This document shows positions 1 to 3,000 of a stretch of DNA of 10,655 bases, in pieces. Position numbers: made by a program. The DNA is from a virus (taxonomy: Duplodnaviria > Heunggongvirae > Uroviricota > Caudoviricetes). The DNA lies in the IMG/VR virus record IMGVR_UViG_2690316115_000011, positions 1 through 10,655 of that record. The stretch is one strand, 5' to 3'. Each line of letters begins with the position of its first letter. The stretch's first letter is position 1.

Positions 1-3000
1 ATTTTCAAGAACCGTTCTGACAGCTTCGGCTTTGAACTCTTTAGAGTAACGTTGGGTTTTTCTGCTCATTATTAGCTCCTTCTGATGCCATTCTATTTCA
101 GGAAGGAGTGTCCGTTAAACTCAGGCTACCTCAGAATGCTTTCCCTACAGATTCAGCCAGGCGACTAAGGTGATAGTTCGTCAGTTTATCCAGTTCATGA
201 TGCGCGGCGCGCACAGCAGTAAGCAGGCTCTGAAGGTAACTGTCCTCTGTGTCCATCTCCATACGGATCACGTTATTGCGTTGTTCTGGTGTGGCATGAT
301 GCCGGTATTTTCCATCTTCATCTTTGCTGAATAAGAAGAGGTGAAGGAAGCGATGAGTAAGGCTCAGAGTGGCGACGGGAATTTCACACTCAGAACAGTC
401 ATCGTCGCTGTCCGGGGATTCGTTTTTCTCCACATCATCCGGAATAGTTCCGTCCGGGTCATCGTTGTCATCGCCAGCAGTTGTGGCATCTTCACCGTTG
501 ATGTTGTCATTGAAGGGTATAGCCATCATGGTGATGCCATCTTCCCCGCCTTTTTCATAGCGGTTGCAGAATTCAGTATCAAACACGCCTTCCGGTGGAA
601 GGTCATTCACGACGGGGAAATTTACGCGAACGGGTTTTTTGAAATCATCCTCGTCGTAGCCTGCATCGTCCATGGCTGCAATGCAGCGGGAAACTGCGAC
701 AGAAAGTTTTCTGGCATCAGCCCAGAAAAAACCGCCTTTGATGCCAAGGCGTTTTCTGACTTTATCGTTTTTTGCTTCGCAGTGTAGTGCAAAAGTCTGT
801 TTATCAGCGCTCATTGTATTTAAACCTCTGGCTGGATTAGAATTAGAGGCCCTTTGTCTGATTTCTCCGAATACGGTGACGCAGGGAGAAATCCGGTAGC
901 CTGCGCTGCCGGATTTTTATTTCAGTGGAAGGTTGCCTGGTTTGCTGTTTTGTGAGTTGTTTTTCCCTTTTCGTGCTGGCATTCAGAGCAGTCGCACTCA
1001 GAATTTTCTCTTGCAAATTCAAGAGCCTGCGCCAGTGTATGGATTTGTTGTGCTCCAATGTTGCTTCTGACGACTTCACATGCAGCATGAATATATGGGC
1101 TTGGTGTTTTGCCATTTAACCCACATGAAACCAAACGACTGTCTTTATATTCGTTATTTCCAACTTCTGTAAGCACTGAAAAAGAAAATACAAAGTCGAT
1201 TTTGTATTCTTTGCATATTTTACTGATGCGTTCTGCAATTTCTTTGAGTTCATTTATTGCATCAGGACTGGTTTCGGAAAATATTTCATTTTGCGCAAGT
1301 TCTTTCATTTTGATTTTTCCGTGATTGATAATTAATGCGGTTTTTATTTCGGCAGATATGGAAGGTGTATTTTATTACTCGTCACAACGACTCTGCTTTT
1401 ACGGGTAAGCCATCGCGCCCGATGAAAACTTTAATCATGCAGTCGGTAATGCATGTTTTTGTTGTGAAGTTACGAATATAGAGTTTTCTCTTTTCAATAT
1501 TGTTTGCTGAAGCGATATATGTCCGACCTTCATGAAGAACATAATCGCCAGGCGTCACGCACTGACGTGGTATTTCATCAGTTCCGAAGTGATGAGCAAT
1601 CATAATTATCTCCATTTTCACAAATGAACTTTGTTGATGCGGTGCCTGGTGCCTCCAGGTGGCGTTAACCAGTTAACAATTAACGCCGGGTCAGGGGACG
1701 ATGACTTTCCGTGACATCCTGTCGGTTTAACTGTTCCGCGTGCGCTGAGCCGCATTCACCGCATCACAAAATTCACTTTAAAAAGGGCGGACATCAGCAA
1801 TCGGCAAACCGATATCCGCCAAGGGTTACACACAGCAATGTTGTTATTCACAACCGGAAGCGCACGGTCGAAGAAATCTAACGACAATCCTTCTATGGGA
1901 AAGAGTCTTCGCCTCGCGCTTTCGTGTAGTACCCTGGCTTTTCAGGGTAATGTCTGTTCAGTAAAGTGAGAGTGCCGGAACTCACCCGTGTCCGGCGCAC
2001 GATCTCCACCTCACCCGTGGAGAACTCCTCAACTACAAACCCCGTAAGGAGAGTGAATTTATGACACAAGAAGAAAAAGTGATGTTTCTGATGCGGCTGG
2101 CTGTCGATACCTACAACACACAATTCAGGGAGAAAGATATACCTCAAAAGGCAGTTCCTGCCGCGGTAGATAAGGGCGGTGCTATTGCCGTATTTTACGA
2201 TGCATTTGAATCATTTTTTGATGAAAAACTCGACGCTGTTAGCGACTTCGGAACATCGAGTAATAAATAACGTTCATTACGGTTCTTAAACAACAATCAG
2301 TGGGCTTGATGTTGTTCTTTTCAAGCTCACTTGCCATCACTTCCATTATTCTTGCGCTTACACGAATTATTTGGTGGCTGTAAGCGACGCAACTATCGCT
2401 GATATTGCTGTTTATTTCTATTACTTCATTTTCACTGGCGGCGCTAAATTTGGATATGCCGTTTCCATTGTCCTGTTTCAGTGCTGTTTCCGCTATCCGG
2501 ATGCGTTCCTGCGTTGCGGAATTTGGGCTAAGTCGATAAACCTGTCTGGCATCTTCCAGAAGCAGGGCGATAATGTGCTTCAGTTCTGTTTCATTCATAG
2601 TTAACTCCGGTAGTTGCAATTTATTAATATCAGGCGGTCAGCTCTTTAAGCTTCTGAACTGCTTTATTCATTTCATCCATACAGTCGATGAATTCGTCCA
2701 GTTTAAGCTGCATTTTTCCGGCGGCCTGAAGGATTTCAAGTTTTAAGGGCGCAAGTTTTTTGTTGAATGCATCATCTTCCTGGCGTTTTTTCTCCGCAAT
2801 TTCGGCGGCTTTCAGCAATTCTTCAGCCTGTTTTCTGAGTATTTCTGGTGAAGGTGAAACTGCTTTGAGGTTATTCATTTCAGGTTCCTGTTGTTGCAGA
2901 ATTAATTTGTTGCATTCTCTGCGTGAGCGTTTCATTGCAGATTCGCACTTCTTGCAATAAATGGCTCTCCCGTCACGCTTGCTGGCATCTGAATAAAAAT

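Follow-up and report, generated by a model that had tools for sequence, protein, structure and literature searches.

The small RNA DicF has been known since 1989-90. Its 5' end is generated by RNase E, a form of 72 nucleotides (nt) is made by RNase III, and it is a proven trans-acting regulator (PMC5069750). A second prophage RNA, KilS, was predicted from Hfq RNA interaction by ligation and sequencing (RIL-seq) and verified by northern blot in 2021; mapping placed its transcription start site at 1418502 and a cut by RNase E at 1418471, and it has three RIL-seq interactions, with yncL as a target (Bar et al., PMC8175672). Here we describe a relative of both in the 439-nt stretch at positions 1622-2060 of a 10,655-nt phage sequence (IMG/VR record IMGVR_UViG_2690316115_000011; the window); the stretch lies between the gene kil and a plus-strand gene of 69 amino acids (aa). 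The first-pass annotation had marked this stretch as free of open reading frames (ORFs), dense in hairpins and located inside the pL operon. We find that it is explained by known RNA elements, namely an unannotated RNA of the KilS/DicF kind. With a probability of roughly three in four, we read the stretch as the minus-strand non-coding spacer of a lambda/Rac-type pL operon that carries a KilS-type, Hfq-dependent base-pairing small RNA before the structured 5' untranslated region (UTR) of kil.

The spacer upstream of kil and its K-12 relatives

Two loci of E. coli K-12 MG1655 were collinear with the minus strand of the window: the ydfC-dicF-dicB spacer of the Qin prophage and the kilS-kilR region of the Rac prophage. 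Window 2045-1604 (minus) aligned with the Qin spacer, which has about 120 nt extra before dicF, and window ~1870-1780 (minus) aligned with the Rac non-coding RNA gene kilS (b4833), annotated upstream of kilR, with 77.7% identity across 85% of the query. The modules run, on the minus strand, in the order leader (2023-1849), seed (1848-1821), terminator (1820-1786), U5, UTR (1784-1615) and kil. Compared with the K-12 KilS seed CAUUGCUGUGUGUAGU, the first 14 nt (CAUUGCUGUGUGUA) were identical and the last bases differed (AACCCUU here, AGUCCU in K-12). One earlier proposal, a minus-strand non-coding RNA ending at a terminator at 1779-1820, was thus supported: the RNA is a homologue of KilS and a paralogue of DicF.

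The best fold at 1786-1820 was one stem of 13 bp with a 9-nt loop; the minus-strand terminator with its T5 run stood, but the nested hairpin drawn there at first did not. Its base, GGCGG/CCGCC, was paired in 28-29 of 29 cassettes. A simple terminator scan of the window did not call it, probably because the 9-nt loop exceeds the 3-8 nt allowed. The Rfam search that had been proposed as a check returned nothing in the window at gathering thresholds, and two relations when scanned by E value: DicF (RF00039) at 1785-1834 (minus; 29.2 bits, E 3.6e-4, resting on the terminator; gathering 48, K-12 dicF 76.7) and STnc100 (RF02076) at 1589-1783 (minus; 27.8 bits, E 6e-4; gathering 47).

We give very little probability to the RNA being a DicF orthologue that represses ftsZ translation alongside Kil. 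The scaffold, the near-identical terminator arms and the downstream UTR are as in dicF, the element lies upstream of an FtsZ-directed inhibitor, and the E value of the Rfam match would suit such a role; the bit score falls short of gathering, however, and the DicF 5' seed UUUCUGGUGAC, which pairs with ftsZ, xylR and pykA, is not present. Target duplexes were folded with the seed only; full-length folding of small RNA with mRNA gave meaningless long duplexes. Under this scheme the duplex with the ftsZ initiation region was no better than with shuffled seeds, a result of little weight because the DicF positive control failed likewise, which makes the test uninformative.

Because the terminator lies in the pL operon downstream of the N gene and the nutL boxB, kil expression needs read-through. 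The suggestion of a tL-type region was accordingly right about a terminator in the pL operon after N and boxB, and wrong in that this is the terminator of a small RNA and not a bare tL. It is unlikely, in our judgement, that the element works in cis only, as a tL-type terminator/attenuator silencing kil until N antitermination while the released RNA is inert. A pure terminator would not constrain 28 nt upstream, and yet the seed core GCUGUGUG is kept among KilS variants despite differing terminator loops and flanks; moreover, K-12 KilS is Hfq-associated and northern-detectable, the paralogue DicF acts in trans, and discrete seed cassettes have been exchanged at the terminator's 5' base. The cis-only reading does draw some support from the location of a terminator between N/nutL and a toxic gene, from the degraded KilS promoter elements in the window and from the small number of KilS RIL-seq partners.

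For the gene content of the stretch, both strands of window 1300-2500 were read and ORFs listed mechanically, with annotation taken from the RefSeq E. coli ML35 record, which is 100% identical across window 1400-2400. That record holds no feature between kil and the 69-aa gene, the longest mechanical ORF within 1622-2060 was 84 aa, and Pfam gave no match for the small ORFs of the stretch. The sole PHROG match there, phrog_24763, covered 22 residues of a 45-aa ORF (window 1621-1755, minus) and overlay a conserved RNA block, the kil UTR; this ORF is spurious, and the family was probably built from ORFs miscalled on UTR RNA. The first impression that the stretch lacks a credible gene was thereby upheld. 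A decayed former protein-coding gene might have left both a 439-nt gap in a tightly packed operon and an ORF with a partial PHROG match, but every reading frame is interrupted by indels among homologues, none of which carries an intact ORF, and conservation is concentrated in the paired arms and the seed; this origin has next to no chance of being correct. Two candidate frames were rejected: the 84-aa TTG frame, broken by a 1-nt indel relative to Qin, and a 10-codon GTG..TGA mini-ORF across both copies of a repeated 10-mer, lost in variant leaders.

The minus-strand RNA 2060-1605 folded with a minimum free energy of -176.3 kcal/mol (z -5.67; 0 of 100 shuffles folded equally well) and the plus strand of the same stretch with z -4.42, folding far better than shuffled sequence on either strand. 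All hairpins reported initially were found, with coordinates off by at most one base. The 10-mer CTCACCCGTG, which had been singled out as shared by two of them (hairpins A and B of the leader), does start at 1981 and at 2010, but it is not a conserved feature: exact 10-mer repeats have a calculated chance expectation of about 0.09 in 439 nt, so the repeat alone is a weak signal, and it is missing from many homologues whose two hairpins persist. It was also rejected as a protein-binding direct repeat, since it is not conserved and relatives differ in hairpin A and in the loop of hairpin B.

Leader and 5' untranslated region of kil

We compared 61 distinct leader sequences and found no conserved reading frame among them; blastn with the leader gave matches only in Escherichia, Enterobacteria and Shiga toxin (Stx) phages. 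Four structures make up the leader (Table 1). Hairpin A exists in two unrelated sequence versions that both fold at the same position, the alternative being GACCAACACG-CUGUCA-CGUGUGGUC, and in a third version that is degenerate. Across 26 leader variants the stem of hairpin B was nearly invariant and its loop variable, and hairpin C had a compensated variant, CUCUG/CAGAG, in phage Evi and contigs L062 and L105 and was broken in the K-12 Qin type. Helix D, a long-range pairing of CAUAACGCGAAAGCGCACGGCG with CGACCGUGCGCUUCCGGUUGU, comprises about 20 consensus bp and about 26 bp in the window, and it covaries from A-U to G-C in Rac-type sequences (GAAGGCGCA...GUGCGCCUCC). An antiterminator role for hairpins A and B like that of HK022 put was considered; their two-hairpin geometry differs from that of put. 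Hairpin C shares CCCUGAAAA with lambda boxB; as a lambda-type boxB/nut site it was rejected, given that no boxA is conserved, the hairpin is broken in many relatives and the true nutL boxB lies at 3896-3910.

These comparisons bear on another earlier suggestion, that the region is a long 5' UTR of the 69-aa gene, or more broadly that ~1900-2060, with hairpins A and B, provides a promoter, an operator or a 5' UTR for the plus strand. Conservation of the leader extends to K-12 Qin and to many contigs in which ydfC lies upstream on the same strand and an antisense gene is lacking, and all covarying helices belong to the minus strand; helix D and the alternative hairpin A are conserved as minus-strand structure. 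For both reasons the plus-strand 5' UTR reading is unsupported. The 69-aa gene is real, its promoter must sit somewhere upstream of 2061, and in phage Evi another antisense small gene adjoins the same leader at the same position, but no sigma-70-like plus-strand promoter was found at ~1900-2060. A plus-strand role for this part of the stretch is therefore highly improbable, although a plus-strand promoter may overlap it.

The UTR folded with z -4.6. Its consensus fold over 29 cassettes has a closing helix of at least 21 bp, whose 5' arm begins directly after the U-tract, and encloses a GCG..CGC hairpin, the hairpin at 1661-1687 and the hairpin CCUGG-AGGCA-CCAGG. At 1661-1687 two pairs are maintained where both partners have changed, each in three sequences (K-12 Rac GACUGUAA/UUGCAGUC, L101 and L113). 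The search for compensatory changes thus yielded pairs compensated on both sides here and in helix D, and covariation that is thin overall. Being 19 nt longer than the 53-nt form, the 72-nt DicF should have its 3' end within the 5' arm of the corresponding closing helix.

The UTR resembles the STnc100/PasD prophage RNAs, with which it has in common the closing helix, a GGUGAAU... hairpin, a variable centre and a CCNGG-AGGCA-CCNGG hairpin, and a close relative with a kil/dicB-type UTR, L139, attains the STnc100 gathering score (47.8). STnc100 is free-standing, with a 3' seed and terminator of its own, whereas the window domain runs into the Shine-Dalgarno sequence and AUG of kil; since these come next, the domain acts as an mRNA leader and not as a free-standing small RNA. 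In species-representative genomes the signature CACCNGGAGGCACCNGGCAC occurred at 120 loci, mostly in Enterobacterales, many of them free-standing STnc100 RNAs and some in tandem. Separately, signature hairpins of the STnc100 type (CACCGGGAGGCACCCGGCAC) recur two to three times, at spacings of 200-630 nt, in Superficieibacter, Enterobacter, Trabulsiella and a Pantoea plasmid (L197 225-1398, L163 3539-3778, L191 and L173), which suggests arrays of such RNAs.

Table 1. Positions of the RNA elements and neighbouring features, in window coordinates and in the order of minus-strand transcription.
Feature	Position	Strand	Basis or remark
pL promoter and oL operators TTGACATAAATACCACTGGCGGTGATACT	3979-4007	-	read directly; starts the operon holding the cassette
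nutL-type boxB hairpin GCGCUGACAAAGCGC	3896-3910	-	located in sequence
N-type antiterminator gene, 127 aa	3347-3730	-	Pfam PF25694 N_peptide, phrog_271
69-aa antisense gene	2061-2270	+	phrog_2605; adjoins leader, neighbour outside the RNA cassette
Leader hairpin A, UCUCCAC-GGGUGAG-GUGGAGA	2003-2023	-	folding; TCTCCAC..GTGGAGA located in sequence
Leader hairpin B, GCCGGA-CACGGGUGAGU-UCCGGC	1974-1996	-	folding, variants; GCCGGA..TCCGGC located in sequence
Leader hairpin C, UACCCUG-AAAAGC-CAGGGUA	1930-1949	-	folding; ACCCTG..CAGGGT located in sequence
Helix D, 5' arm CUACACGAAAGCGCGAGGCGAAGA	1906-1929	-	long-range helix, folding
Helix D, 3' arm UCUUCGACCGUGCGCUUCCGGUUGUG	1849-1874	-	counterpart of K-12 KilS -10 (CGtTAGATT, 1873-1882) in loop just upstream
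Single-stranded seed AAUAACAACAUUGCUGUGUGUAACCCUU	1821-1848	-	folding and alignment
13-mer in common with RprA	1827-1839	-	inferred RNase E site just 5' of the 13-mer
Intrinsic terminator hairpin, 13-bp stem, 9-nt loop	1786-1820	-	-21.2 kcal/mol, z -5.8
C + U5 tail, small-RNA 3' end, presumed Hfq-binding tail	1780-1785	-	identical to DicF and KilS tails
Closing helix of STnc100-like kil UTR, 5' arm	1757-1784	-	consensus fold
Inner hairpin UGCGGCUCAGCGCACGCGG, counterpart of STnc100 CCCCC..GGGG hairpin	1736-1754	-	Rfam, alignment
Inner hairpin GGCGUUAA-UUGUUAACUGG-UUAACGCC	1661-1687	-	two pairs compensated on both sides; GGCGTTAA/TTAACGCC located in sequence
Inner hairpin CCUGG-AGGCA-CCAGG, STnc100-type signature	1645-1659	-	scan, alignment
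Closing helix, 3' arm	1615-1644	-	alignment, folding; ends just before kil Shine-Dalgarno
kil, Rac KilR type, FtsZ inhibitor	1382-1603	-	RefSeq annotation; phrog_294; gene gated by the cassette

A seed block in common with RprA

The seed of the KilS type resembles that of the host small RNA RprA (RF00034). K-12 KilS and RprA share AAA-N-AACGA-(C)-AUUGCUGUGUGUAGUC, of which 16 nt are exactly identical; the exact match to RprA is 13 nt in the window and 20 nt in contig L113. Local alignment to RprA gave z 11.4 for K-12 KilS, 7.7 for the window, 11.5 for L113 and -0.6 for DicF, measured against dinucleotide shuffles, and 0 of 1000 shuffles attained the observed score for KilS or for the window. 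Processed RprA consists of the last 47 nt of RprA and is present in vivo alongside the full-length RNA (PMC9262595). The block common to KilS and RprA is the start of this processed form. In both RNA types a block (A)AUAAC-N-A-AUUGCUGUGUGUA lies immediately upstream of the terminator, and the K-12 KilS RNase E site, which falls on the C directly before AUUGCUG, has the same relative position as that of RprA. Apart from this block the two differ: the window RNA is carried on a prophage instead of at ydiK-ydiL, its terminator is a different one, and it has neither an Rcs-dependent promoter nor the 5' half of RprA that pairs with rpoS; the window scores only 22.4 bits (E 7.8) against the Rfam RprA family, whose gathering score is 70. 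A candidate origin of the RprA 5' half in STnc100 (GCAUGG-AAUCCCC-UGAG looks alike by eye) was rejected because no STnc100 match appeared at rprA at E up to 10.

K-12 KilS and RprA also have yncL as a common partner. It is an RprA target in both TRIC-seq and RIL-seq (10.1101/2025.09.11.675593). Positions -38 to -18 of the yncL leader are predicted to pair with CAUUGC + UGUGUGUAGU of the shared seed, with duplex energies of -19.9 kcal/mol for K-12 KilS, -18.1 for the window and -18.3 for RprA. Inside the window itself, a search for seed-complementary sites found none except the seed.

A third K-12 locus with this kind of seed lies in the e14 prophage, where an STnc100-like domain, UAUGCUGUGUGUAGUCUUGGCGG and a terminator overlap the coding sequence ymfH (b1142; L248 2195-2400, minus). 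The protein annotation there is doubtful and seems to hide an unannotated small RNA whose seed is RprA-like, and ymfH was listed as a predicted small RNA by Bar et al. 2021 (PMC8175672). The e14 element matches 1,849 of 5,426 complete genomes.

Together, these similarities lead us to propose tentatively, at a little short of even odds, that KilS-type prophage RNAs, the window's included, carry seed copies of processed RprA, so that prophages plug into the Rcs/RprA regulon, and that seeds are exchanged as cassettes on a toxin-gating scaffold of terminator and UTR. We found no paper noting a relation between KilS and RprA, in a literature coverage that was incomplete and is hence no proof of novelty; the RprA seed copy is possibly the one point that is new.

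The following sequence of events would link the modules. Polymerase without N modification would stop at the terminator, leaving a 3' end at about 1780-1785. RNase E would cut just 5' of AUUGCUG, within the AU-rich single strand, as in K-12 KilS, DicF and RprA, and so release an RNA of about 60 nt ending in the hairpin and U5, which with Hfq would pair through AUUGCUGUGUGUA with host mRNAs such as the yncL leader. After induction, N-modified polymerase would pass the terminator and produce kil mRNA. The UTR closing helix, at 23-28 bp, is a likely RNase III site at which the small RNA would be split from kil mRNA, as for the 72-nt DicF. The leader hairpins, together with helix D, probably govern how the precursor is folded or processed. 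In lysogens, some KilS may come from a weak internal promoter in the loop of helix D, although this route is doubtful.

Several points weigh against reading the stretch as a KilS-type small RNA before the kil UTR. Identity between the window RNA and K-12 KilS is only about 78%, and the targets of the window RNA may differ, given the different 3' end of its seed. The ends of the small RNA, its Hfq binding and its targets are extrapolated from the K-12 relatives. Neither the DicF nor the STnc100 match attains its Rfam gathering score. A scan for sigma-70-like promoters called none for the small RNA, and the K-12 KilS extended -10 box TGtTAAATT is degraded to CGtTAGATT in the window, so that an internal promoter is doubtful and production in lysogens uncertain. 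The predicted yncL duplex barely beats shuffled seeds (fraction 0.04-0.06), and chimeric reads within the identical 16-mer can be assigned to kilS or rprA alike. The alignment of 29 cassettes behind the UTR covariation was selected on an exact 29-mer, and the high identity of most homologues (more than 90%) leaves little covariation. Finally, Stx phage 75/02 dispenses with the leader.

Operon context, cassette exchange and comparison with known systems

The location inside the pL operon was confirmed by the pL/oL region, boxB and N gene upstream on the minus strand. The pL/oL sequence is identical to that of lambda, and boxB is of the P22 type. The N protein matched PF25694 at 57.1 bits (cut-off 27.9). 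RefSeq annotates only a 69-nt fragment of it as an incomplete 'regulator'; the 127-aa ORF looks intact, and its product ends in ...AAGYRKSKQLTAR and is P22-like, as is boxB. The repressor (5021-5734, 237 aa) equals lambda cI save for two residues. The immunity region (3347-5734, minus) is thus a hybrid, with lambda-like cI and pL/oL and P22-like boxB and N. Between cI and pL, where lambda has rexAB, lies a BstA-type abortive-infection gene (4228-4989, minus; KilA-N domain, phrog_6287, E 1.8e-82).

After N the gene order is two genes of unknown function, the stretch, kil (Shine-Dalgarno GGAG at 1610-1613), a 128-aa gene and recE. In its central part, a 238-aa protein (2630-3346, minus; phrog_2539) weakly matches families of endonuclease VII, of HNH and of Lar-like restriction-alleviation proteins. 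The 69-aa gene matches phrog_2605 over its full length (E 1.5e-45) and has a 51% identical homologue in Edwardsiella phage EPP-1; it converges with a 119-aa minus-strand gene (phrog_2982), the 3' ends overlapping by 32 nt (2239-2270).

We surveyed the family through viral contigs sharing a 29-mer that runs from the 3' arm of the terminator into the beginning of the UTR, which gave 119 loci. Terminator and UTR were constant and the seed was exchanged: 75 loci had the DicF seed, 28 the KilS seed and 6 a seed of a CAUGUUGAUU class, with singletons besides. Among the other seed classes, the C-type seed showed no resemblance to core small RNAs in Rfam. The downstream gene encoded DicB, Kil or a third protein (MLNVAIEN...). 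We observed recombinant cassettes (phage Evi, L244 1840-2070; L030, L112 and others) with a DicF seed before kil, with a KilS or C-type seed before the third gene, and with a C-type seed before kil; small RNA and toxin are therefore not fixed pairs. In Shigella Stx phage 75/02 a terminator differing by one base and a homologous kil UTR follow another seed, and the exchange point is the 5' base of the terminator.

KilS-type elements occur in 1,849 of 5,426 complete E. coli genomes (1,765 cover at least 80% of the query), and the window variant, at 95% identity or more, in 83. The KilS-region and e14-element queries each match exactly 1,849 genomes, which may be coincidence or co-occurrence. KilS-type elements are thus present in about a third of complete E. 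coli genomes, and none of 30 sampled matches was annotated. A 2016 study found no DicF or DicB in phage databases, whereas we find the cassette in genomes deposited as phages (PhiR5_2, phiSTEC1589-Stx1c, Evi and Stx phage 75/02).

The cassette is placed where a host-killing gene is switched on, and so bears on the prophage timing of kil and dicB. The family, in which seed and toxin change while the scaffold stays, clearly illustrates from nature how small RNAs evolve through the exchange of cassettes. RprA targets include the biofilm, envelope-stress and division genes csgD, ariR, ftsA and yncL (10.1101/2025.09.11.675593). Should the RprA-like seed be functional, this network would receive input from the induction or leakage of prophages.

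StxS offers a parallel in logic. It arises when the pR' transcript of Stx phages ends early (PMC7547250), and it represents the arrangement proposed for the window, a terminator later overridden by antitermination that releases a regulatory small RNA; its operon is late and Q-dependent, and it bears no relation in sequence or structure to the window element. The DicF locus has in common with the window the leader hairpins A-C, helix D, the STnc100-like UTR and a downstream gene for a cell-division inhibitor, and both small RNAs end in a GGCGG..CCGCC-C-U5 terminator followed by AAAGUGAAUUUUGUGAUG; the window differs in its unrelated seed, in lacking the Qin segment of about 120 nt between helix D and DicF and in having kil, not dicB, downstream. 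K-12 KilS is a discrete Hfq-associated transcript of about 100 nt. Upstream, the window has the full Qin-type leader where K-12 Rac has sieB; its terminator loop is shorter than that of KilS, and different, and the extended -10 box of KilS is absent. The two RNAs correspond in position, each directly preceding the kil(R) 5' UTR on its strand in an early-left operon, and both end in a Rho-independent terminator with a U tail. The seed core AUAAC-N-ACAUUGCUGUGUGUA and, in the terminator, the 3' arm CUGAUGUCCGCC-C-U5 are found in either RNA, as are the 3' arm of helix D before the seed and the UTR that follows.

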